Positions 3,040-57,763 of a stretch of DNA of 64,000 bases are shown here, piece by piece. Position numbers and translations under genes: made by a program. Source of the DNA: Candidatus Levyibacteriota bacterium (GTDB lineage: Bacteria; Patescibacteriota; Microgenomatia; Levybacterales; UBA12049); assembly GCA_016432345.1 (NCBI GenBank), contig CP066685.1, positions 496,236 to 560,235 of the forward strand, read 5' to 3'. Position 1 is the first letter of the stretch, and the number at the start of each line of letters is the position of its first letter. Below the pieces are notes generated by a model that ran no database searches, had not been told where the DNA came from, and worked only from the letters and a program-made list of their open reading frames with translations.

Positions 3040-3711
3040 ATGGCTTACCAACAGACAGAGATAACAAAGAGCGTTTATTATGAAATTGATAAAAGAATTT
3101 TAGATATTGTATTTTCCTTATTTCTTCTTATTATATTTTTGCCAATTATTATTATTATTGCATTTCTTATTTGGCTTGATTTTTCGGGTCCAATTCTTGC
3201 AGATACACCAGAGAGGGTTGGGAAAAATGGTAAATTGTTTAAGATGTATAAATTTCGTTCAATGATTCAAAATGCTCATGAAATATTGCGCGAAAATCCA
3301 AAATTTCAGAAATTATTTGATGAGTATAAAAAAGGAAGCTACAAACTTAGAGATGATCCAAGAATAACTAATCTTGGAAAGTATATTCGTAAACACTCTT
3401 TAGATGAGGTTCCTCAACTTATTAATGTATTAAAAGGTGAAATGAGTCTGGTTGGCCCTCGGGCTTATTATCCAGACGAATTGCGGGAACAACAAAAAAA
3501 ATATCCCGAAACAAAAAAAGCAGTTAAAACTGTGCTTTCTGTTAGACCTGGTATTACAGGTTATTGGCAGGTTTCGGGGAGAAGTGCGATAAATTTTGAC
3601 AAACGGATTGAAATGGATGCTGAATATGTGCGAAAGAGGTCAGTTTTTCAAGATTTATGGATAATTGCAAAGACCCCTTGGGCAATGATTTCTGGAAAAG
3701 GAGCGCTATAG
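3040..3711 (+). CDS. Initiating sugar phosphotransferase (bacterial sugar transferase family, WbaP/EpsL-like)
   Basis: It has an N-terminal TM helix and the family signature DEVPQLINVLKGEMSLVGPRAY. Confidence 0.88.
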   Translation: MAYQQTEITKSVYYEIDKRILDIVFSLFLLIIFLPIIIIIAFLIWLDFSGPILADTPERVGKNGKLFKMYKFRSMIQNAHEILRENPKFQKLFDEYKKGSYKLRDDPRITNLGKYIRKHSLDEVPQLINVLKGEMSLVGPRAYYPDELREQQKKYPETKKAVKTVLSVRPGITGYWQVSGRSAINFDKRIEMDAEYVRKRSVFQDLWIIAKTPWAMISGKGAL

Positions 3712-16538: not shown

Positions 16539-17792
16539 ATGCAAGCAGTTATTTTAGCAGCAGGAAAATCAAGTCGTTTTTATCCATTTACAAATTATTC
16601 ACACAAGTCGCTTATTAAAGTTGCGGGTAAACCGCTTATTGTGCATACAATTTTAAGCCTAAGAAAGGCAGGAATTTATGAAATGATTATTGTTGTAGGC
16701 GAAGAAAGCAAAATTCCATCTGTAGTTAAATCTGAAAATCTTGATGTGTCAATAAAATTTGTTGTACAAAAAGAGCCGCTTGGCATGGGTAATGCTGTGC
16801 TTTTGGCAAGGGAGCATATCAAAGGTGATTTTTTACTCCTGAATGCACATCATGTTGATGTTGATTTATTTTTTAATGATCTGATGGGGATTAAAGACGG
16901 GGCAGATGCGGTTTTGTTGTCAGAAGAGCGTGAAGACGCATGGAAATATGGGGTATTACAGGTTGAAGGTCAAAAAGTTCTGGACCTTGTAGAAAAGCCC
17001 AAAAAACAAGATTTATCATCTCATCTTTGCGTGGTTGGAGTTTATCTTTTTTCAAAAATGTTTATTGATACACTTGCAAAAATACCAAGCGAGCATTATC
17101 AATTGGAAACCGCTATTTCGAAGTTTGCCAAAATCCGCACTGTTTTGATGATTAAAGCAAAGCAAAAAACAATTACCTTAAAGTATCCGTGGGATGCACT
17201 TTTGGTTAAAAACTACCTGTTAAATAACCTAAAATCGCATATATCATCCAAAGCAAAAGTTGCCAAATCGGCAGAAATTATTGGCAATGTGTATATAGAT
17301 AATGGAGCAACTATAATGGAGGGGGCATGTATAAAAGGCCCGTCTTATGTTGGCAAAAACGCAGTAGTTGGAACAAAAGCAATTATTAGAAATGGTGTAG
17401 ATGTTGAGCAAGATTGTGTTATAGGAGCAACTATAGAAATAAAAAATAGTTTATTGCAAGATGGCACAACAACACATTCGGGTTTTATAGGGGATTCTGT
17501 AATTGGGAGAAAATGCAAAATCGCCGCGGCATTTGAAACAGCAAATGTGCGAATAGATAGAAAAACAATTGGCGTTTTGGTTGCTGATGAAAAGATTGAC
17601 AGTGGTTTAAATTCTCTTGGGGTGATTATGGGAGATGAAGTGCGAGTTGGCATTCGTGTTTCCATAATGCCAGGAGTTGTTATTGGTCAAAATGCGACCA
17701 TTGGTCCATCAACAACTGTTTCTCGCAATATAAAAGAAAAGGTAACGTATTACACGAAATTTCAGGAGGTTGTTGAGGAGAAAAGAGAATGA
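16539..17792 (+). CDS. GlmU-like bifunctional sugar-1-P nucleotidyltransferase / left-handed beta-helix acyltransferase
   Basis: The N-terminus AVILAAGKSSRF is the NTP-transferase motif. The C-terminal approximately 170 aa consists of hexapeptide repeats (IGNVYIDNGATIMEGACIKGPSYVGKNAVVG...). Confidence 0.7.
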   Translation: MQAVILAAGKSSRFYPFTNYSHKSLIKVAGKPLIVHTILSLRKAGIYEMIIVVGEESKIPSVVKSENLDVSIKFVVQKEPLGMGNAVLLAREHIKGDFLLLNAHHVDVDLFFNDLMGIKDGADAVLLSEEREDAWKYGVLQVEGQKVLDLVEKPKKQDLSSHLCVVGVYLFSKMFIDTLAKIPSEHYQLETAISKFAKIRTVLMIKAKQKTITLKYPWDALLVKNYLLNNLKSHISSKAKVAKSAEIIGNVYIDNGATIMEGACIKGPSYVGKNAVVGTKAIIRNGVDVEQDCVIGATIEIKNSLLQDGTTTHSGFIGDSVIGRKCKIAAAFETANVRIDRKTIGVLVADEKIDSGLNSLGVIMGDEVRVGIRVSIMPGVVIGQNATIGPSTTVSRNIKEKVTYYTKFQEVVEEKRE

Positions 17793-26797: not shown

Positions 26798-27907
26798 ATG
26801 AAAATTCTTATTACAGGAGGAGGTCACTTTTCGCCAGCAATGGCAGTAATTGAGTCGTTGCCAAAAGGCATAAGCGTATTGATGGTGGGTCGAAAGTACT
26901 CATTTGAAGGCGACAACGCGCTATCTATTGAGTATATAGTATGTCAAGAAAGAGGTATTCCATTTATTGCATTATCAACCGGAAGATTACAACGTAAGTT
27001 TACAAAATATACAATTTCCTCTCTTTTGAAAATTCCATTTGGATTTTTTAAAGCACAAAAAATAATGCGTGATTTTAAGCCAGATGTGGTGTTGTCGTTT
27101 GGCGGATATATTTCGCTGCCAGTTGTTTTGGCAGCATATGCGTTTAGGACTCCTATTGTGGTGCATGAACAAACGCTTGAAGCAGGAATGGCAAATAAAA
27201 TTGCATCGTATTTTACGAAAAAAGTTTGTATTTCATGGGAATCATCAAGAAAGTTTTTTCCGAAAAAGAAAGTTGTATTAACGGGAAACCCGATTAGAAG
27301 ATTTAAGATTAAAGATTTAAGATTAAAGATTAAAGATGACGAGAAATTGCCGATTATTTATGTAACTGGGGGGAGTTCGGGGTCGCATGCGATTAACCTG
27401 TTGGTTGAAGGATGTATTGAAGGGCTTTTGGAAAATTTCATTGTATTTCATCAAACAGGCGATGCAAAAGAATTTAATGATTTTGAAAGACTTAATACAT
27501 TTAAAAAAACTTTAAAAAGCTCGTTGCAGAAGCGGTATATTTTAGAAAAATTTGTGCCAATGCAGAATGTTGGAGAGGTAATTAATCGAGCGGATCTAAT
27601 TATATCAAGATCGGGAATCAACACAATAACAGAGCTGTTATTTTTTGGTAAACCTGCAATACTTATTCCTATAACATTTTCTCAAAGAAACGAGCAGTTG
27701 AAAAATGCTACTTTTTTGCAAGAACACGGCTTGGCAAAAGTACTGGAACAAGAGACGACAACAAGCGAAACGCTTTATCAGGAAATTTTAGAGATGCTAA
27801 AGCAGAAAAACGAATATATGAAATCCGCAAAAGAGGCAAAAAAGCTTGTTATTCCAGATGCTCGAGAAAGAATACTTGCTGTACTGCAGCAAGTTGTGAA
27901 AAAATAG
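26798..27907 (+). CDS. murG: UDP-GlcNAc:lipid I GlcNAc transferase MurG
   Basis: It is a GT28 GT-B enzyme with ITGGGHFSPA, VHEQTLEAGMANK, LTGNPIR and VTGGSSGSHAIN. It contains the period-7 cassette at 27301-27335. Confidence 0.9.
   Translation: MKILITGGGHFSPAMAVIESLPKGISVLMVGRKYSFEGDNALSIEYIVCQERGIPFIALSTGRLQRKFTKYTISSLLKIPFGFFKAQKIMRDFKPDVVLSFGGYISLPVVLAAYAFRTPIVVHEQTLEAGMANKIASYFTKKVCISWESSRKFFPKKKVVLTGNPIRRFKIKDLRLKIKDDEKLPIIYVTGGSSGSHAINLLVEGCIEGLLENFIVFHQTGDAKEFNDFERLNTFKKTLKSSLQKRYILEKFVPMQNVGEVINRADLIISRSGINTITELLFFGKPAILIPITFSQRNEQLKNATFLQEHGLAKVLEQETTTSETLYQEILEMLKQKNEYMKSAKEAKKLVIPDARERILAVLQQVVKK
27301..27335 (+). repeat. Period-7 array (ATTTAAG ATTAAAG ATTTAAG ATTAAAG ATTAAAG), 35 nt, in frame in murG
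   Basis: There are five units in two variants. It encodes FKIKDLRLKIKD in the interdomain linker just before IIYVTGGSSG. Confidence 0.93.
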
Positions 27908-29729: not shown

Positions 29730-30824
29730 ATGTTAATTAAACCTCAAACAGCAAACTTTGCTAAAATCCGCGTGATGGGTATTGGCGGCGGAGGAAATAA
29801 CGCCTTAAATTCTATGATTGCCCAAAGCCAAATTCAGGGAGTTGATTTTATCGCCGTTAACACCGATGCACAGGCATTATTAATGTGTCAATCTGCCACA
29901 AAACTGCAAATTGGTGATAATTTTACCAAAGGGCTTGGTTCTGGAGGCAATCCAGAAGTTGGAAGACAAGCGGCAGAGGAGTCGCAGCAAAAAATTAAAG
30001 ATATTTTAGAAGGAACAGACATGGTGTTTTTGGCTGCTGGAATGGGAGGCGGTACGGGAACAGGCGCAACGCCGATTATTGCTCAAGTTGCCAAAGAAGT
30101 TGGCGCTTTAACAATTGCCGTTGTTACAAAACCGTTTTCATTTGAAGGGACGCGTCGCATGGTAACGGCAGAAGACGGTGTCGAAGGTTTGCGTGATAAA
30201 GTTGATACATTAATTGTTATTCCTAACCAAAGGATATTGGATGTGGTGGATCGAAAACTATCGCTTTTGGAGGCGTTTAAAGTGGCGGATTCTGTGCTTA
30301 CCCAGGGCGTACAGGGAATTTCGGACCTTATTACCATGCCAGGGCTTATTAATGTAGATTTTGCCGATGTAAGAGCCATTATGACAAATGCAGGATCGGC
30401 TTTAATGGGTATTGGAGCTGGTGTTGGAGAAAACAGAGCGCAGACTGCTGCCAGAACCGCTATTTCCTCGCCGCTTTTGGAGATTTCCATGGATGGAGCG
30501 AGAGGAGTTTTATTTAATATTATTGGAGGTCCAGATCTAACCATGTCTGAAGTTGATGAGGCGGCAAAAATTATCGCAGCGGCGGCTGATCCTGATGCCA
30601 ATATTATTTTTGGCGCAACGATTGATGAATCCATGCGGGATCAACTTAAAATTACGGTGGTGGCAACAGGGTTTGACCAGACAAAACAGCGACTTAAAGA
30701 ATTTATTGTCCCAGAAAAAAAGACCGAAGAACAAAAGCCTATGGTTACTTCTTCTTCCCAAAAATCAGAAAACGACGAAGAAGACGTTTTCGAAATCCCC
30801 GCTTTTTTGAGGCAAAGGAATTAA
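29730..30824 (+). CDS. ftsZ: Cell division GTPase FtsZ
   Basis: It has the tubulin signature [17 protein letters not shown], and a C-terminal conserved peptide [11 protein letters not shown]. Confidence 0.97.
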
Positions 30825-30985
30825 TTATTAGTTTTTAGGTTAGACATAATCCTATATTATTTGATTTACACCTCTTTTTTTGTTATTATAGTTTCTCTTA
30901 ATAAATTATCGTGAGTTATTTTGATGCATTATGAGTATTGCAGAACAATTCTCGCTTTTTTACGTCAGCGTAATTAAATCATTTG

Positions 30986-32830
30986 TTATTGATTTGAATA
31001 GTCAATAATAAACGTTTCACAAAACTTTTTTTGAGATAAACTTTCCACATTAAAATCATGAAGAGTAAAATCAGAAGCATATCTCTTGAGGGCAAACTGG
31101 GAACAAACAGCGTCTTGGTAGATGTTATATACTGAACCAGAGTCTGAAAGCTGCACGATTGAAAGGCTTTTTTTAGGTATTTTTAGAGCATCGCAATCAT
31201 CTCCAGCATTCAAAATATAGGTTCGGCCATTTTCGAGTTGCTTAGTATGTTTGCAGTCAGTAAAAGAAATGTTTTTATACGTATAGTTGTGAGTTAAAAA
31301 TGCATTTCTAAAATATTCTGCTGTTTGTCTATTATAATTGTTTGAGTAAAAAATAAAATCCTTATAGGGGGTTTTGGGAGAATTGCTAATTATAGTTAAC
31401 GGTATATTTTTTTCTATTGCTATGGCTGCATATCGAGCTATAAGACGAGAACTAAAATTCGCGCCTTCCGACATGTAGACTGGTTGAATAAAAAAATAAA
31501 TATATAAGAAATTAGCAACTAATATCGCGTAGATAATTATGATAATAATTGTTGAAACGATAAGATATTTTTGATTTTTTGTAAAAGTTATTGTATGCCA
31601 AATTCCTATACCGATGAAAAGAATTAAAAAAGGAATATATAACGACGATCTCATTGCATAGGAAATACCAACAGTACTTACTACAGAAGGTAGAGGAGAG
31701 ATTACCAATAATGATGTTAGAAATAACCACAATTTTCTTTTATGCGCAAAGAGATAACAAAACCCAATAACAAAAAAAATATAGTCTGCCACATAGAAAT
31801 ATCCATGGTTGAATAGCGCAAACCGCAGCGTATATTCATTTTGGAAAAACAATTGGTTTGGTGAAAATGCACCAAAATACTTTGTTAGTATATTTTTTCC
31901 AGCAATGGTTATTTTGTTAATAAGAAAGTTTGTTGCGGGGTTTTGTATTGCAAGTTGTCTTGTCATATTTACTTCTGCAGCTATCTCACTGGATGAAATA
32001 AACCTTGTTTCTCCAAGTCTTGCTGAAGTGTTTTGGTTTTTTATGGAGATGAGAAACGAAAAAAATATAATAAAGCAAAAAGAAAGTAGTGTTATATATT
32101 GTTTTATATATCGTTTGTGATCTATTTCGCGCCATGTGTAAAAAGCAATAATAAAAAAATAAGGAAGAAATGTAATTTTATATGCCATATATGTGTAAAA
32201 ACCAAACGCTAATGGAATAATGGCATAGAGCTTTTTCCACCCTGACGTTTTTAGTAAAAGATACAAACTAGATATATAAAAAAATACTGCAAGTGATGCT
32301 TCGAATGCTGCCCTACCAAAAAAAATATTCCAAGGATTGAAACTTGCAAGAAGTCCAACAATAAATGCCGGTGATTTACCAACTAATTGTAACGTAATTA
32401 GAAATAATACAACCGAAAGTAAGGAATTAATAACCGCATAGAAGATATGCGCGGCAAAAAGAGAAGAGGGAAGCGGCCCAATAACAGGCGCAAGTAATGT
32501 ATATGGTAATTCTGCTTGCGCCGGTTCATCGGGTATTGGTGCAAACGAGAAGGGATTCCATTTGCCGCTTACATCGTGCCCTGTATAATATACAGCTTTT
32601 GCGTTTAGGACAAAAATCATATTGTCTTGAACAATTCCTATTGGAATTTTGTCCAGCCATATTGTTCGAACAGAAAGGGAAATAAAAAATAAAAGGAATC
32701 CAAGGAAAAGTGGTTTTGCAATTAACTTTTTTAGTATCACTGGTTTTATTTTTTCAGATTTTGCCAACAGTGTCAATAAAATTTTTGAAAAATCAGTTGC
32801 CAAAGAAACTAGCGGAGTTCGGCGAGGCAA
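30986..32830 (-). CDS. Polytopic membrane glycosyltransferase, GT39/ArnT/PMT-like (GT-C fold)
   Basis: It has about 12 TM helices over the N-terminal roughly 430 aa and a soluble C-terminal domain. The start is uncertain: the TTG at 32830 reads through an antisense ileS-derived 35-mer, and the GTG at 32740 (VILKKLIAKPLF...) is an alternative. Confidence 0.6.
   Translation of the reverse strand: MPRRTPLVSLATDFSKILLTLLAKSEKIKPVILKKLIAKPLFLGFLLFFISLSVRTIWLDKIPIGIVQDNMIFVLNAKAVYYTGHDVSGKWNPFSFAPIPDEPAQAELPYTLLAPVIGPLPSSLFAAHIFYAVINSLLSVVLFLITLQLVGKSPAFIVGLLASFNPWNIFFGRAAFEASLAVFFYISSLYLLLKTSGWKKLYAIIPLAFGFYTYMAYKITFLPYFFIIAFYTWREIDHKRYIKQYITLLSFCFIIFFSFLISIKNQNTSARLGETRFISSSEIAAEVNMTRQLAIQNPATNFLINKITIAGKNILTKYFGAFSPNQLFFQNEYTLRFALFNHGYFYVADYIFFVIGFCYLFAHKRKLWLFLTSLLVISPLPSVVSTVGISYAMRSSLYIPFLILFIGIGIWHTITFTKNQKYLIVSTIIIIIIYAILVANFLYIYFFIQPVYMSEGANFSSRLIARYAAIAIEKNIPLTIISNSPKTPYKDFIFYSNNYNRQTAEYFRNAFLTHNYTYKNISFTDCKHTKQLENGRTYILNAGDDCDALKIPKKSLSIVQLSDSGSVYNIYQDAVCSQFALKRYASDFTLHDFNVESLSQKKFCETFIIDYSNQ
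32773..32807. repeat. 35-bp direct repeat, copy 1 (ectopic copy of the ileS 5' coding segment)
   Basis: The sequence TCAATAAAATTTTTGAAAAATCAGTTGCCAAAGAA is 35/35 identical to 33838-33872. Confidence 0.95.
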
Positions 32831-32854
32831 GCCCGCATTTCTACGGCAGGGGAA

Positions 32855-33061
32855 TTAGCGTAAGAGAAGATAGCCTTCAATAAGGATGCCGCTTGCAATA
32901 AGGAGTGAAACAAGCAGTATTATTACAATAATAAAAAAAGGCACGGGGATTTTGGTGGCGTTGTATGCTCTTCGGGCAGAATAGATAACTAATCCTAAAC
33001 ATATAAGGAGCAACAGAAAAAATAGGAAGATAAATGTGTGTAACAGGATGTATTGAATCAT
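32855..33061 (-). CDS. Small two-TM membrane protein
   Basis: 68 aa with two hydrophobic helices. Its ATG overlaps the stop of the upstream gene (ATGA), which suggests co-translation. Confidence 0.55.
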   Translation of the reverse strand: MIQYILLHTFIFLFFLLLLICLGLVIYSARRAYNATKIPVPFFIIVIILLVSLLIASGILIEGYLLLR

Positions 33062-33687
33062 ACTTTGTTATGACTACCAGCTTCGATAGTGATACTTTGG
33101 ATGGCATCTTCTATTTCCTGGGCGTTTTCCGGTGTTTTAAAGAAAAATGGTTCATCACGTTCTAATTTATGAAACCGCACCGTAACATTTTCGATTCGTA
33201 AATAGTCGTAAAGCAAATTTGATGGACTTCTATCGATTTCCTGCTGGTGTATTTGTTCTAAAAAAATAACTTCGGAATAAAAACCGGAAATGCGAAAAAA
33301 CCGTTTGTGCACAATTGATTTGTTGGTAACAATATAAAATTGATAGTACCACGAAAGAAATGTATAGAGTTCGATTAACAGTATGGTCGCCATACCGGCA
33401 ATTGTCGCAATAAGCAGAAGCGTTTGTTTATTTGCAAAAAGAGATGTGAAGTTAAGTGTATTAGTTACAACTAGGAAAAAAGCGGTAAAGATAAAAATTT
33501 CAGTTAATATCCGAGCAAGCATGGAAAGTAAATATGTTACCGGATGTTCCCGTTGAGTGCAAAACACATTTTCTCCCGGAGCGCATTTTACCAGCGGGAA
33601 ATCCTGGAGTCTTTTTCCTGATTTATCAAAAAGTACATGCGAAATACTTGTTTCTTTCTTTTGTTTGAAGCTGCCAATTATATCCAT
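33058..33687 (-). CDS. Membrane protein with bacterial PH (YdbS/YdbT-like, bPH_2) domain
   Basis: 209 aa. Two central TM helices are followed by YYQFYIVTNKSIVHKRFF...IDRSPSNLLYDY, which is typical of bPH_2. A good RBS (AAGGTGGA) lies 7 nt upstream of the ATG. Confidence 0.6.
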   Translation of the reverse strand: MDIIGSFKQKKETSISHVLFDKSGKRLQDFPLVKCAPGENVFCTQREHPVTYLLSMLARILTEIFIFTAFFLVVTNTLNFTSLFANKQTLLLIATIAGMATILLIELYTFLSWYYQFYIVTNKSIVHKRFFRISGFYSEVIFLEQIHQQEIDRSPSNLLYDYLRIENVTVRFHKLERDEPFFFKTPENAQEIEDAIQSITIEAGSHNKV

Positions 33688-33767
33688 TGTTATCCACCTT
33701 GGTGGTATTATACCATTTTTCCTGTTTTGCTTGATGTGGGGTATTTTTTCGGTTACAATCTAAAGAC

Positions 33768-36581
33768 ATGTTAAAACCAGTCACCTCGCAAGTTGATTTT
33801 CCCAAACTCGAGGAAGAAATTATACAGTTTTGGAAAATCAATAAAATTTTTGAAAAATCAGTTGCCAAAGAAGCGCCAAAAGGTAATTGGACATTTTTAG
33901 ATGGGCCGCCTTTTATTACAGGGCTTCCTCATTATGGTAGTTTGCTTTCTAGTATTCCCAAAGATTTATTTCCCCGTTTTAAAACCATGCAGGGGTATAG
34001 GGTTAGACGTGTTTGGGGTTGGGATTGTCATGGTCTTCCGGCGGAAAATAAAGTGGAAAACAAATTGAGTATTACCCGCAAAAAAGATATTGAAGAAAAA
34101 ATAGGAGTTAAAAAATTTATTGACGAATGTAAATTGTATGTTAAGGATGTGTCTTCGGAATGGGAATGGTATGTAGACCACGTTGGCCGCTGGGTTGATT
34201 TTAAAAATGCCTACAAAACCATGGACTTACCATATATGGAGACAGTGATGTGGGTATTTAAACAAATGTACGACAAGGGTTATATTTACAAAGGTCTTCG
34301 GGTGTCGCTTTATTGCCCACATTGCTCAACGCCAATATCAAACTTTGAGGTTGCGATGGATGTTGATAATTATAAAGAGATAACTGATGCGGCAACAACA
34401 TATAAATTTGAGTTGCAAGATGAACTAAAGACGTTTATTCTTGCTTGGTCAACAACTCCCTGGAATAAAATTGTTACTCCTGCGTTGGCAGTTAATCCAA
34501 AATTGACTTATGTAAAAGTTAAGCAAGGTAACGAAAATTATATTTTAGCTAAAACAACTCTAAAAATACTTACTGGAGATTACAAAATTGTGGAAGAATT
34601 TAAAGGGGCAAAACTTGTGGGCATGCAGTATGTTCCGCATTACGATTATTATCCAATCGAAAAAGGCAAACAAGCATTTGTGATTATTCCTGGTGATTTT
34701 GTTACAGCAGAAGAAGGCACAGGAGTTGTAACAATTGCTGCTTATGGGGAAGAAGATTTAAAAGCCATGCAGGAAAATAATATCCATATTGAAATGCATC
34801 TGGACGAAGAAGGAACAATCAAACAAGATGTAGCACTTTTTGGCGGGATGTACTATCTTAAGGCGAATAAAGCCGTCAACGAAGATTTGGCAAAGAGGGG
34901 TTTAATTTATAAAGACGAGCAGTTGCCTCACAATGTTCCATTATGTTGGCGGTGTCATACTCGTTTGTATTATGGGCCGCAGAATGCCTGGTACGTGAAT
35001 GTGCAGAAATTAAAAAAAGAAATGAAGGAAACAAATGAGACTACTAATTGGTTTCCCAAACATTTTAAATATGGCCGATTTTTAAAAAGCTTAGAAGCAG
35101 CGCCAGATTGGTGTATTTCAAGAAGTCGTTATTGGGGATCGCCTGTGCCGGTATGGGAGTGTACATGCGGACAGCGGATAGTACCCGGTTCAATTAGAGA
35201 ATTAGAAGAATTCTCCGGTAAAAAAATTACAGATTTGCACAAACCCGAAATTGACGAAGTAATTATTAAATGTTTATCATGCGGCAAGAATGCAAAACGG
35301 GTCACCGAAGTTTTGGATAGCTGGATCGAAGCAGGTTCTGCGTCGTTTGCCGAACGCCATTTTCCTTTTAATAAAAGCGTAAAACTTACCGATTTTTTCC
35401 CACCCGATTTTATTGTGGAATATACAGGACAAATCCGCGCCTGGTTTTATGTGTTGCATGTGATTACAAATGCTTTGTATAAATCAAACGCCTACAAAAA
35501 TGTTGTGGTAACAGGAGTTATTTTAGGGACCGATGGCAGGAAGATGAGTAAAAATTACGGCAATTATCCAGATCCGAAAGAAATGCTGCAAAAATATGGC
35601 GGTGATGCACTGCGACTTTACTTAATGGGAAGTCCTGTGATGCATGGAGAAGATATCCTTATTTCTGAAGAACAATACAAACAACAAGTTAAAGGCACCA
35701 TACTTATTTTGTGGAATGTGTACAATTTTTTCGTATCAAATGCGATCGTTGACCAGTATCAAGTGTTAAGTATAAAGTATAAAGTATCAGAGAATATATT
35801 AGATCAATGGATCGTTTCATTGCTACAGAAGTTGATAAAAGAAATAACAGATGCTTTAGAAAAATACGATACTATTTTGGCTATAAAAGAAGCAGAAGGA
35901 TTTGTTGGTGATCTTTCGACTTGGTACATCAGGCGAAGTAGAGATAGGGTGGGAGCTGCGGTAGAAAATAGTAAAGATAAAAGGGCGTTTTATGAAACAA
36001 CATATTATGTGTTAACAACTCTTTGTAAACTTCTTGCGCCCATTATGCCATTTATTACAGAAGAGATGTATAAAAATTTAACAGGGGAGGAATCGGTTCA
36101 TTTATCGGATTGGCCGCGAACAGATCAAAGATTAAAGATCAAAGATCAAAGAATAGAAATCGAAATGGAGCAAGGTATACAACTTGCGTCAAAAGTGCAT
36201 GCTTTACGAAAACAGACAAATATCAAAGTTCGTATCCCTCTTAGAAAATTATCATACAAAGGACCAGAGGAACTTATAAAAGAAGTAAAGAAGGTTGTTT
36301 TGGATGAGGTGAATGTATACGAATTAGTTTATGCGGGCAAGAGTGATAATTATGAAGTTTCTGGTGATACAAGTCAAAAAAATCAGGATATCGAAGCAGG
36401 AAAAGCGCGGGATATTATTCGAAGTATTCAAGAAGAGCGAAAAAAACTTGGCACCAGCCTTGATGAATATGTTGATGTTGTTATCGAATCCTGGCCAAAA
36501 GAATTTGAAAATACAATCAAAAAGAAAGCGCTAGTTAAAACGCTTATTAAAGGTAATCAATTTAACGTTGTTAGAATATGA
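33768..36581 (+). CDS. ileS: Isoleucine--tRNA ligase (type 2, eukaryote/archaeal-like)
   Basis: The sequence shows GPPFITGLPHYG (HIGH variant), KMSKNYGN (KMSKS), a CP1 editing domain and WCISRSRYWG. It contains period-7 cassettes at 35755-35789 and 36123-36157. Confidence 0.95.
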   Translation: MLKPVTSQVDFPKLEEEIIQFWKINKIFEKSVAKEAPKGNWTFLDGPPFITGLPHYGSLLSSIPKDLFPRFKTMQGYRVRRVWGWDCHGLPAENKVENKLSITRKKDIEEKIGVKKFIDECKLYVKDVSSEWEWYVDHVGRWVDFKNAYKTMDLPYMETVMWVFKQMYDKGYIYKGLRVSLYCPHCSTPISNFEVAMDVDNYKEITDAATTYKFELQDELKTFILAWSTTPWNKIVTPALAVNPKLTYVKVKQGNENYILAKTTLKILTGDYKIVEEFKGAKLVGMQYVPHYDYYPIEKGKQAFVIIPGDFVTAEEGTGVVTIAAYGEEDLKAMQENNIHIEMHLDEEGTIKQDVALFGGMYYLKANKAVNEDLAKRGLIYKDEQLPHNVPLCWRCHTRLYYGPQNAWYVNVQKLKKEMKETNETTNWFPKHFKYGRFLKSLEAAPDWCISRSRYWGSPVPVWECTCGQRIVPGSIRELEEFSGKKITDLHKPEIDEVIIKCLSCGKNAKRVTEVLDSWIEAGSASFAERHFPFNKSVKLTDFFPPDFIVEYTGQIRAWFYVLHVITNALYKSNAYKNVVVTGVILGTDGRKMSKNYGNYPDPKEMLQKYGGDALRLYLMGSPVMHGEDILISEEQYKQQVKGTILILWNVYNFFVSNAIVDQYQVLSIKYKVSENILDQWIVSLLQKLIKEITDALEKYDTILAIKEAEGFVGDLSTWYIRRSRDRVGAAVENSKDKRAFYETTYYVLTTLCKLLAPIMPFITEEMYKNLTGEESVHLSDWPRTDQRLKIKDQRIEIEMEQGIQLASKVHALRKQTNIKVRIPLRKLSYKGPEELIKEVKKVVLDEVNVYELVYAGKSDNYEVSGDTSQKNQDIEAGKARDIIRSIQEERKKLGTSLDEYVDVVIESWPKEFENTIKKKALVKTLIKGNQFNVVRI
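33838..33872. repeat. 35-bp direct repeat, copy 2 (native ileS codons 24-35, WKINKIFEKSVAKE)
   Basis: It is identical to 32773-32807. It lies in the conserved N-terminal region of IleRS, upstream of the PPFITGLPHYG (HIGH-type) motif. Confidence 0.95.
35755..35789 (+). repeat. Degenerate period-7 array (AGTATCA AGTGTTA AGTATAA AGTATAA AGTATCA), 35 nt, in ileS
   Basis: It has five units of consensus AGTRTYA. It encodes QYQVLSIKYKVS. Confidence 0.8.
36123..36157 (+). repeat. Period-7 array (GATCAAA GATTAAA GATCAAA GATCAAA GAATAGA), about 35 nt, in ileS
   Basis: It has four clear units and one degenerate unit. It encodes DQRLKIKDQRI and shares AGATTAAAGAT(T/C)AAAGAT (17/18 nt, same reading frame, peptide RLKIKD) with the murG array. 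Confidence 0.88.
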
Positions 36582-39887: not shown

Positions 39888-39959
39888 GGACCTGTGGTTC
39901 AGTGGTAGAGCGTTCGCTTCACATGCGAAAGGCCGATGGTTCGAATCCATCCAGGTCCA
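39888..39959 (+). tRNA. tRNA-Val (anticodon CAC)
   Basis: Manual cloverleaf: acceptor GGACCTG/CAGGTCC, D arm GTTC/GAGC, anticodon stem TTCGC/GCGAA with loop TTCACAT, and T arm GATGG-TTCGAAT-CCATC. CCA is not encoded. Confidence 0.93.
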
Positions 39960-51041: not shown

Positions 51042-51992
51042 ATGAAGATAAGTTTTATTTCGACTGTTTACAATGAGGAGAAGACGATTGGATGGATGCT
51101 AGAGAGTTTGGCAAAACAGACGAGGATGCCAGACGAGATGATTATTGTAGATGGAGATTCAACCGACAGTACGCTGTCGGTAATTTTCAATTTTCAATTT
51201 TCAATTTTCAATCAAAACACAAAAAATAAATTTTCAAAAATAAAAATACTTACAAAAAAAGGGAATCGGGCGGTGGGACGAAATGAGGCGATAAGAAATG
51301 CGACAGGCGATATTATTGTATGTTCGGATGCGGGATGCCAGTTGGATAAGGATTGGGTGAAGAATATTGTGAAGCCGTTTGAAAATCCAAAAGTAGATGT
51401 TGTCGCAGGGTACTATGCAGCAAAGCCACAATCGATCTTTCAAAAATGCCTGGTGCCATATGTGCTTGTTATGCCAGATAAGATTGACCCTAAAAATTTT
51501 CTTCCGGCATCCCGCACAATGGCATTTAGAAAATCTATTTGGGAAAAAGTTGGTGGGTTTCCAGAAAGATACTCGCATAACGAAGATTATGTTTTTGCAA
51601 AGAAGTTAAAGCACATTGGAGTAAATATCGTTTTTGCCAAAGATGCCATTGTTTACTGGATGCCTCGAAAGAATCTAAAGCAAGCATTCATTATGTTTTT
51701 CCGCTTTGCCTTTGGCGACGCAGAAGCTCGTATTTTTCGCCCAAAAGTTTTTTTGATTTTCGTTCGTTATTTATTTGTATTTTTTCTCATTTTTTTACTT
51801 ATTGGTTTTCAACTATACGCTATACGCTATACGCTATACGCTATGTTTTTATTGTACGTGACGTGGTCTGTTTGGAAGAACTACAAATACGTTGCAGACT
51901 GGCGCGCAATCGTAATTTTGCCTATACTACAAATAACTGCTGATATTGCAGTAATTTTGGGAACGATATGGGGTATACAACACAGGCAATAA
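51042..51992 (+). CDS. Glycosyltransferase family 2 with C-terminal TM region
   Basis: The sequence shows ISFISTVYNEE, IIVDGDSTDST, GRNEAIRNA and CSDAG, with C-terminal hydrophobic helices. It carries cassettes at 51183-51213 and 51813-51844. Confidence 0.85.
   Translation: MKISFISTVYNEEKTIGWMLESLAKQTRMPDEMIIVDGDSTDSTLSVIFNFQFSIFNQNTKNKFSKIKILTKKGNRAVGRNEAIRNATGDIIVCSDAGCQLDKDWVKNIVKPFENPKVDVVAGYYAAKPQSIFQKCLVPYVLVMPDKIDPKNFLPASRTMAFRKSIWEKVGGFPERYSHNEDYVFAKKLKHIGVNIVFAKDAIVYWMPRKNLKQAFIMFFRFAFGDAEARIFRPKVFLIFVRYLFVFFLIFLLIGFQLYAIRYTLYAMFLLYVTWSVWKNYKYVADWRAIVILPILQITADIAVILGTIWGIQHRQ
51183..51213 (+). repeat. Perfect heptanucleotide array (AATTTTC)x4.4 in a GT2 gene
   Basis: Period-7 identity holds from 51183 to 51213. 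It encodes IFNFQFSIFN just after the DGDSTDST motif. Confidence 0.95.
51813..51844 (+). repeat. Perfect heptanucleotide array (CTATACG)x4.6 in the same GT2 gene
   Basis: Period-7 identity holds from 51813 to 51844. It encodes LYAIRYTLYAM within the C-terminal hydrophobic region. Confidence 0.95.
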
Positions 51993-57690: not shown

Positions 57691-57763
57691 GCCGATGTAG
57701 CTCAGTTGGTAGAGCGGCGCTTTCGTAAAGCGTAGGTCGCAGGTTCGATCCCCGCCATCGGCT
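57691..57763 (+). tRNA. tRNA-Thr (anticodon CGT)
   Basis: Manual cloverleaf: acceptor GCCGATG/CATCGGC, D arm GCTC/GAGC, anticodon stem GCGCT/AGCGT with loop TTCGTAA, and T loop TTCGATC. There is one A-C mismatch in the T stem, and CCA is not encoded. Confidence 0.88.

Follow-up and report, generated by a model that had tools for sequence, protein, structure and literature searches.

A 35-nt copy of ileS as a probable recombination scar at the edge of a gene insertion between ftsZ and ileS in Candidatus Levybacteria

Introduction

In short-patch double illegitimate recombination, or SPDIR, patches form from single-stranded DNA at the replication fork, under the control of RecA, DprA and exonucleases. 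The process inserts intragenomic patches of 3 to ~ 100 bp where there is microhomology (10.1101/2023.11.22.568220). Here we analyse a 64,000-nt stretch (hereafter the window; contig CP066685.1, positions 496,236 to 560,235) of a metagenome-assembled genome (MAG) of Candidatus Levybacteria, a member of the Candidate Phyla Radiation (CPR). In this stretch, 35 nt of ileS, a class I tRNA synthetase gene, recur exactly upstream of a membrane glycosyltransferase gene. We conclude that the extra copy (copy 1; the site in ileS is copy 2) is probably the scar of microhomology-mediated illegitimate recombination at the right junction of a ~ 2-kb glycosyltransferase insertion in the 3’ end of ftsZ. As such, it would be a repair scar and not a new genetic device.

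Copy 1 resembles SPDIR products in being a short patch, within the size range given above, that matches an ectopic donor in its own genome and would have joined a non-homologous site at microhomologies (here 4 and 9 nt), with no dedicated recombinase. Unlike those products, it is fixed in nature at the edge of a 2-kb gene insertion rather than being an isolated microindel, its original target is read from relatives, and its host is an uncultured CPR bacterium. The locus also resembles those formed by homology-facilitated illegitimate recombination (HFIR) in the course of natural transformation and core-gene hotspots: foreign cargo lies beside a conserved anchor, here ftsZ, whose 3’ end is replaced while the old end is left as a short duplicate, and the cargo at the same site varies among related genomes (none, one gene, four genes or other). 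However, templated filler from a neighbouring gene at the junction is not standard for HFIR, and the left crossover in ftsZ and its donor can be inferred at most.

A junction insert copied from ~ 1 kb away, in the same orientation and with microhomology at each switch, is what microhomology-mediated break-induced replication and fork stalling and template switching (MMBIR/FoSTeS) would leave, although accounts of these come chiefly from eukaryotes and from stress models in E. coli. Integrase islands at gene ends, such as those at tRNA genes or at the attachment (att) site in the 3’ end of icd, share with this locus a duplicated gene 3’ end that bounds the island and incoming DNA that keeps the gene intact. 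In contrast to such islands, no integrase is found among the listed open reading frames (ORFs) of the islands in the window and in two related loci (L019 and L018), the remnants vary in length (8-17 codons), and the 35-mer belongs to no repeated att core.

Results

The 35-mer TCAATAAAATTTTTGAAAAATCAGTTGCCAAAGAA occurs at 32773-32807 (copy 1) and 33838-33872 (copy 2), in the same orientation, and a search of the window with up to three mismatches allowed found no third copy. No such match arose in any of 100 dinucleotide-preserving shuffles. Of at least 60 families of direct repeats, the 20 largest include no other dispersed family with two copies that are 100% identical. The repeat is exactly 35 nt long, since the adjoining bases of copies 1 and 2 differ on the left (G and A) as well as on the right (A and G). 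Between the copies lie 1030 bp (32808-33837) with ORFs of 68 and 209 amino acids (aa; p68 and p209 below), the ileS promoter and ileS codons 1-23. A preliminary description of this DNA had reported the exact pair, in one orientation, and two small membrane-protein genes with the promoter and start of ileS between its members; the pair proves unique and the ORF and promoter map agrees with that content.

The pair is not an assembly artefact. A 1408-nt contig of the independent Logan assembly of SRR12113426 (L001) equals window positions 32360-33767 exactly and spans copy 1 with both flanks, which disposes of the assembly chimera that the description had allowed for. Contigs of SRR12113425/428 and SRR4343428/430 begin or stop within the 35-mer, which is to be expected where a graph built at k = 31 meets a 35-nt repeat; those of the latter pair, from a second accession series (SRR43434xx), reproduce the interior as far as the repeat.

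Copy 2 is native ileS sequence, as first described, and comprises codons 24-35, (K)INKIFEKSVAKE. The gene occupies 33768..36581 on the plus strand (Pfam PF00133, E = 1.7e-114), and copy 2 is colinear with every other IleS compared. The comparison set comprised 80 relatives, all of them Candidatus Levybacteria or Patescibacteria MAGs and the best of them 72% identical at the aa level. A 23-nt core of copy 2, AATAAAATTTTTGAAAAATCAGT, which encodes NKIFEKS, is identical at the DNA level in ileS of 35 otherwise dissimilar metagenomic contigs (scan L094-L129); it is unusually conserved DNA and is available for annealing across lineages. That scan returned native ileS sites for 35 of 36 matches and the full 35-mer in none. 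The sole exception, L127, is a contig rich in A+T where no bacterial gene context could be recognised, and its match looks accidental. Among ~ 100 other loci examined, the best foreign match to the 35-mer has four mismatches. Because all foreign ileS segments differ from copy 1 by at least four mismatches, and the donor site 1065 nt away is 35/35 identical to it, the genome’s own ileS is the apparent source.

Copy 1 stands upstream of the insertion’s cargo, a minus-strand gene (30986..32740) for a 584-aa membrane glycosyltransferase of GT-C type (PMT_2/ArnT-like) with 36 homologues, the nearest 73% identical. The public annotation (HYV37_02750) has a 605-aa hypothetical protein with a TTG start at 32803, inside copy 1. 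Most of the homologues are 576-588 aa long, and more than 20 full-length ones begin near a GTG at 32740 (MILKK...). We predict from these N-termini that GTG 32740 is the true start and that the annotated TTG is an over-extension, 21 codons too early, and copy 1 would then be upstream non-coding DNA. A start at this GTG had been raised in the preliminary description, which nevertheless put copy 1 in the 5’ end of the GT39-like ORF and had it read antisense by that ORF. The placement is right for the ORF annotated from TTG 32803 but not for the real gene, and the antisense reading falls with the over-extension. The label ‘GT39-like’ (GT-C) is a reasonable one, resting on the PF13231/PF02366 (PMT_2/PMT) domains precomputed for distant homologues; direct Pfam searches gave no match for the glycosyltransferase, p68 or p209.

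The glycosyltransferase promoter (32741..32776, minus strand) consists of a putative -35, TTGACA, at 32776-32771, a 17-nt spacer, an extended -10, (TG)AAAAAT, at 32753-32748, and 7 nt before the GTG. The layout TTGAC(A/T)-17-A(A/G)(A/G)AAT, with 6 or 7 nt to the start and with the spacer end AATCTGA, is also found in front of the closest two homologues, those of L087 and L088, and TTGACA is a credible -35 for the gene. On the opposite strand, the first 4 nt of copy 1 read as the TTGA of this hexamer. Similarity to L087 ends at 32760 except for the -35 hexamer, and since conservation of the promoter among the three loci extends only as far as the -35, the left junction appears to lie inside TTGA. 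The earlier suggestion that the copy creates a -35 was therefore right in taking the hexamer for a -35, but the hexamer is ancestral and the junction falls within it. As a separate observation, the -10 is only 7-8 nt before the start codon in the promoters of ileS (33754-33770) and the glycosyltransferase gene (32738-32753), and 6-7 nt before it in L087 and L088; a region of L065 around 3360-3380 was flagged for the same short spacing, which suggests leaderless mRNAs.

Rightward from the glycosyltransferase start, the junction begins with 32 nt of promoter, after which come the 35-mer, ACTAG, a 19-nt G+C-rich spacer and a non-coding copy of the ftsZ 3’ end (tail2). The functional ftsZ (29730..30824, plus strand, recognised by its ORF and FtsZ homology) has as its last 27 nt CCCGCTTTTTTGAGGCAAAGGAATTAA (30798-30824, plus strand), identified by tail alignment and encoding PAFLRQRN*, which we take to be FtsA-binding. 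An older remnant of an ftsZ 3’ end (tail1; 32799..32814, plus strand), GCCAAAGAAACTAGCG, reads CAA AGA AAC TAG, or QRN*, in the ftsZ frame. It is 16/16 identical to the true ftsZ stop region of L090 (...CGCCAAAGAAACTAG|CG; in longer form ...TTCGCCAAAGAAACTAG|CG), and it is made up of the last 9 nt of copy 1, the overlap GCCAAAGAA, and the 7 nt that follow. The 35-mer thus exactly fills the gap between the conserved -35 and tail1, with TCAA common to it and the former and the 9-nt overlap common to it and the latter, so that the uniquely ileS-derived core of copy 1 is only ~ 22 nt. No similarity to ileS codons 1-23 was found to the left of copy 1, and at copy 1 itself tblastn matched ileS residues 24-35 only; this argues against a simple colinear donor fragment.

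The spacer between tail1 and tail2, CGGAGTTCGGCGAGGCAAG, occupies 32813..32831, and the 24 nt to the right of copy 1 have no other copy in the window (at most three mismatches; short-word BLAST). Tail2 (32832..32858, plus strand), CCCGCATTTCTACGGCAGGGGAATTAG, reads PAFLRQGN*. It is identical to the window’s ftsZ tail at 20/26 positions, to that of L007 at 21/26 and, by our own count, to that of L092 at 24/27, and where its FLRQ codons differ from those of true tails the differences are synonymous. Its stop overlaps that of p68 with the 1-nt offset of the real ftsZ stop in L007, and the 400 nt 3’ of it match the DNA 3’ of the true tails in L007, L089, L090 and L092 at 75-82%. Homology, stop geometry and downstream flank together identify tail2 as the ancestral ftsZ end, apparently displaced when the glycosyltransferase block came with a new one.

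Other candidate features of the junction were set aside. A terminator was rejected, as folding was no better than in shuffles on either strand (z = -1.4 and +0.3). The 13-mer AGTTGCCAAAGAA at the right end recurs in the body of ftsZ (30086-30098, VAKE), and the 15-mer GTGTCAATAAAATTT across the left junction recurs in a nucleotidyltransferase gene (16746-16760); both are probably chance matches in A+T-rich DNA with unlike flanks, although they could be further microhomology partners. An Rfam search of the window and nine related loci gave tRNAs and a distant thiamine pyrophosphate (TPP) riboswitch only; neither the junction nor any tail copy gave a match.

The closest relative, L007 (FtsZ 92% and FtsA 84% identical), has ftsA and ftsZ followed by p68 and p209 on the opposite strand and then ileS and rodA, with overlapping stops of ftsZ and p68 and no glycosyltransferase gene. 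The same empty arrangement, with ftsZ abutting p68, occurs in L089, L090 and L092/L093, which were reached through p209 homologues, and no ectopic ileS fragment was found in any of these loci. Because p68-p209-ileS is kept in syntenic order in L007, L087, L089, L090 and L092, the 1030 bp between the repeats are ancestral, and the inserted DNA appears to be a ~ 2-kb block (30825-32831) that lies across copy 1 from them. At its left end lies a 161-nt spacer (30825..30985) that is unlike the rest of the window or the relatives. The comparison with related genomes that the preliminary description had called for thus shows the glycosyltransferase gene absent, the segment 32808-33837 present and a single ileS site left, and the 1030-bp segment is not the insertion or mobile unit it was suspected to be. 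The site between ftsZ and p68 is occupied by a four-gene island (p411-GT2-glycosyltransferase-DUF2079) in L087 and by another gene in L091.

Integrases, transposases and terminal inverted repeats were sought among the window’s ORFs, repeats and Pfam matches, and none was found. The target duplication that had been proposed as one origin of the pair is contradicted by the lack of a transposase and of terminal repeats, and the sequence to the left of copy 1 is not ileS, so that the flanks do not form one interrupted target. A site-specific integrative element was rejected as well, since the relatives keep the flanked segment and lack the glycosyltransferase side instead, and there is no recombinase. 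No repeats adjoin copy 1, as they would a CRISPR spacer or arrayed cassette.

The flanked genes themselves are conserved neighbours. The small membrane protein p68 (32855..33061, minus strand), the old neighbour of ftsZ, is 82% identical in L007 and also occurs in L087 and L090. The membrane protein p209 (33058..33687, minus strand) is transcribed divergently from ileS and belongs to a small family restricted to Levybacteria (12 homologues, the nearest 78% identical). A promoter-like site for ileS, TTGATG-17-TACAAT, lies at 33731..33759 on the plus strand, 8 nt before the ATG.

In the 25 loci with both genes, ftsZ and ileS are 355 to ~ 9500 nt apart. Their flanks are constant while the cargo differs among related genomes: none in L007, L089, L090 and L092, the glycosyltransferase in the window, the four-gene island in L087, Fic- and NYN-type genes with others in L019, and a dehydrogenase-like ORF with others in L018. 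At least 12 Levybacteria loci have additional, non-coding copies of the 27-nt ftsZ tail in the ftsZ-ileS interval, almost always in the orientation of ftsZ (the window, L010, L015, L016, L018 with four, L019 with four, L020 with three, L064, L065 with two, L071, L082 and L083). Most have the edge of their homology at (I)PAFLRQ, and the copies differ from one another largely at synonymous positions. The module of a tail, 22-54 nt of G+C-rich sequence and a tail copy recurs in L065, L071, L019 and L018. The DNA downstream of an extra tail in L019 is 88% identical to that downstream of the true tail in L022, which points to an independent 3.6-kb insertion in L019, bounded by ftsZ-tail copies; no integrase was found among its ORFs. 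The flanks in the window and L019 suggest repeated insertions into the ftsZ 3’ end that left old tails behind.

The ileS end of the interval can also be duplicated. In a mirror image of the window, L065 has, 2.8 kb upstream of ileS, a duplicate of 115 nt that takes in the ileS promoter and codons 1-26 (526-640 versus 3339-3455) and breaks at the AATAAA of the NK codons, just where the window’s patch begins. It flanks two minus-strand genes for membrane glycosyltransferase-like proteins (530 aa with PMT/PMT_2, and 328 aa).

Several of the extra tails are preceded by a shared element of ~ 100 nt, which contains TTGACT-17-TAAATT/TATAAT, resembling a promoter, and the conserved stretch AAAGGCTATTTATT...GGTG. 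The regions concerned are 70-260, 1742-1932 and 3748-3938 in L018, 554-744 in L071, 8633-8823 in L083, 4532-4722 in L064, 4688-4878 in L019 and 8485-8675 in L010. The three L018 copies could encode a 17-codon peptide starting with M or L, in effect a free FtsZ C-terminal peptide. The element has no Rfam match and could be a small RNA, a micropeptide or merely a repeated scar.

Elsewhere in the window, the Rfam matches are the TPP riboswitch (RF00059; 43190-43296, minus strand, 67 bits) and tRNAs at 39888-39959 and 57691-57763. Six tandem arrays of 7-nt units (365-399, 1413-1446, 27292-27337, 36122-36152, 51182-51212 and 51813-51844) have ~ 4.4-6.4 copies over ~ 31-46 nt, with the units CAAATAC, GATTAAA, AGATCAA, AATTTTC and CTATACG. 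All are inside long ORFs, one of them near the 3’ end of ileS, which is unusual for a 64-kb stretch, and they may be slippage-prone or phase-variable sites. These arrays are probably the ‘35-bp cassettes’ whose length had been likened to that of the repeat; as tandem arrays of a heptamer x ~ 5, they are unrelated to copy 1, and the agreement in length is coincidence.

Discussion

A short patch, identity to a nearby donor, apparent microhomology at both ends, a position at an insertion edge and no recombinase together point to microhomology-mediated illegitimate recombination. The size and identity are those of an SPDIR patch (35 nt, 35/35 to the genome’s own ileS). For a target read from relatives, the junctions would show a 9-nt overlap on the right and TCAA on the left. 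Of the origins first put forward for the repeat, a recombination scar or pasted 35-nt fragment remains the best reading of the junction. The ileS duplicate beside the glycosyltransferase cassette of L065 and the tail-flanked 3.6-kb insertion of L019 are comparable scars and speak for it too.

We envisage that the block 30825-32831 would have landed in the 3’ end of ftsZ, within the variable hotspot between the core genes ftsZ and ileS, and that a strand copied or derived from the genome’s own ileS 1 kb away would have annealed at both microhomologies and then been fixed. This could have happened in one step, as an SPDIR-type single-strand patch or, with the same product, by two template switches while the insertion junction was being repaired or replicated. 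It could also have happened in two. The 9-nt homology between tail1 and ileS codons 33-35 would first have produced a ~ 1.07-kb tandem duplication, from the ftsZ tail to ileS codon 35, whose novel joint would be exactly ...GCCAAAGAA|ACTAGCG. A cassette anchored by ftsZ homology and joined illegitimately at TCAA would then have overwritten the left unit save its last 35 nt. Neither route fits better than the other; like the donor, the route is inferred.

Once in place, the patch was tolerated and perhaps favoured, as the -35 was kept intact and A+T-rich DNA was supplied upstream of it. Recombination between the copies would be expected to yield lethal deletion products, as ileS would lose its promoter and codons 1-23. 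That foreign DNA is taken up is plausible by analogy with CPR Saccharibacteria, in which natural competence has been shown (PMC10633639).

Several points weigh against this account. Both microhomologies are read from relatives that are only 73-82% identical (L087 and L090), none of those found being near enough to display the junction as it was before the event, and the left one is only 4 nt exact. The data do not distinguish a one-step patch from a duplication that was later overwritten. No source was found for the 19-nt G+C-rich spacer, which has no second copy in the window. The 35/35 identity makes the event recent or the copies homogenised, and there is no closer relative by which to date it.

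Of the other explanations, we consider it doubtful that copy 1 is a retained regulatory element, acting as a trans-antisense to ileS codons 24-35 on a read-through transcript of p209 and p68, or as an UP-like element with part of the -35. Copy 1 does lie downstream of p68 on the minus strand, where a terminator scan found none and where the hairpin that separates p68 from copy 1 has no significant stability (z = -1.4), so that read-through is possible, and the antisense strand of the patch puts TTTTTCAAAAATTTTA directly upstream of TTGACA. Yet there is no copy at this position in 80 + 7 related loci, no Rfam family matches, and the homologous promoters in L087 and L088 have unrelated upstream sequence; moreover, a glycosyltransferase transcript from the conserved promoter would begin downstream of the patch, leaving an mRNA without it. 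Complementarity to ileS mRNA is perfect by construction, with conservation in 0 of 87 related loci, and an antisense function of copy 1 is unsupported.

We give similarly little weight to gene conversion, by which the 5’ end of a divergent GT2 gene first present upstream of the glycosyltransferase, as in L087, with KNKIF codons that share AATAAAATTTTTG with ileS, would later have been converted by ileS to 35/35 identity. In L087 this 13-mer is indeed present, in the same orientation, within the 5’ coding part of the GT2 gene that lies upstream of the homologous glycosyltransferase. However, it is out of register with the window and further upstream of the start, the homology to L087 ends at 32760 with no other GT2-derived sequence detectable in the window, and the right end of the patch abuts the ftsZ tail rather than GT2 sequence. 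Even so, such a conversion would still be a microhomology-seeded ectopic patch, a variant of the mechanism that we favour.

Far less probable is a mobile element in which the 35-mers would be attL and attR or a target-site duplication around a 1065-bp unit of p68, p209 and the ileS promoter and head. Exact direct repeats do bound a discrete segment, and a circle of 1065 bp would formally agree with the k = 31 assembly graph. Against this, the DNA between the repeats is ancestral, being syntenic in at least five relatives with the single ileS site only, it comes with no recombinase, transposase or terminal inverted repeats, excision would cost the essential ileS its promoter and first 23 codons, and L001 shows a linear left junction. 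Least probable of all is an assembly chimera or chance similarity: mis-joins in a MAG can create short exact repeats, but the SRR12113426 contig is identical over 1408 nt across copy 1, the SRR43434xx runs reproduce the interior, copy 2 is colinear with every other IleS, and 0 of 100 shuffles matched.

Microhomology-mediated recombination at the insertion edge may itself be part of a broader pattern. A tentative possibility is that in Levybacteria two essential genes provide, with their short and well-conserved ends, recurrent crossover handles of a cassette dock, recombinase-independent or served by a recombinase in trans. These ends would be the final 27 nt of ftsZ and the initial ~ 100 nt of ileS, as far as the invariant NKIFEKS, and the 35-mer would be a by-product of the dock and no isolated accident. 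Each acquisition would then leave a copy of the old gene end, much like a growth ring, and some tail copies behind promoter-like sequence might be expressed as small RNAs or FtsZ C-terminal micropeptides.

In itself, the 35-mer is probably a natural case of a microhomology-templated patch, one that an uncultured CPR bacterium has fixed at the edge of a horizontally acquired gene. Events of this type are already known; examining the copy has also put right a start codon that had been annotated wrongly. Of greater interest is the lead to which it points, the ftsZ-ileS interval as a cassette hotspot, where old ftsZ 3’ ends, and in one genome an old ileS 5’ end, pile up as direct repeats around accessory genes, including those for PMT-type glycosyltransferases and Fic- and NYN-type proteins. 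If general, this would be a readable record of successive gene acquisitions in uncultured organisms, and a hint as to the means by which surface-modification genes pass between tiny genomes that have no obvious mobile-element machinery.

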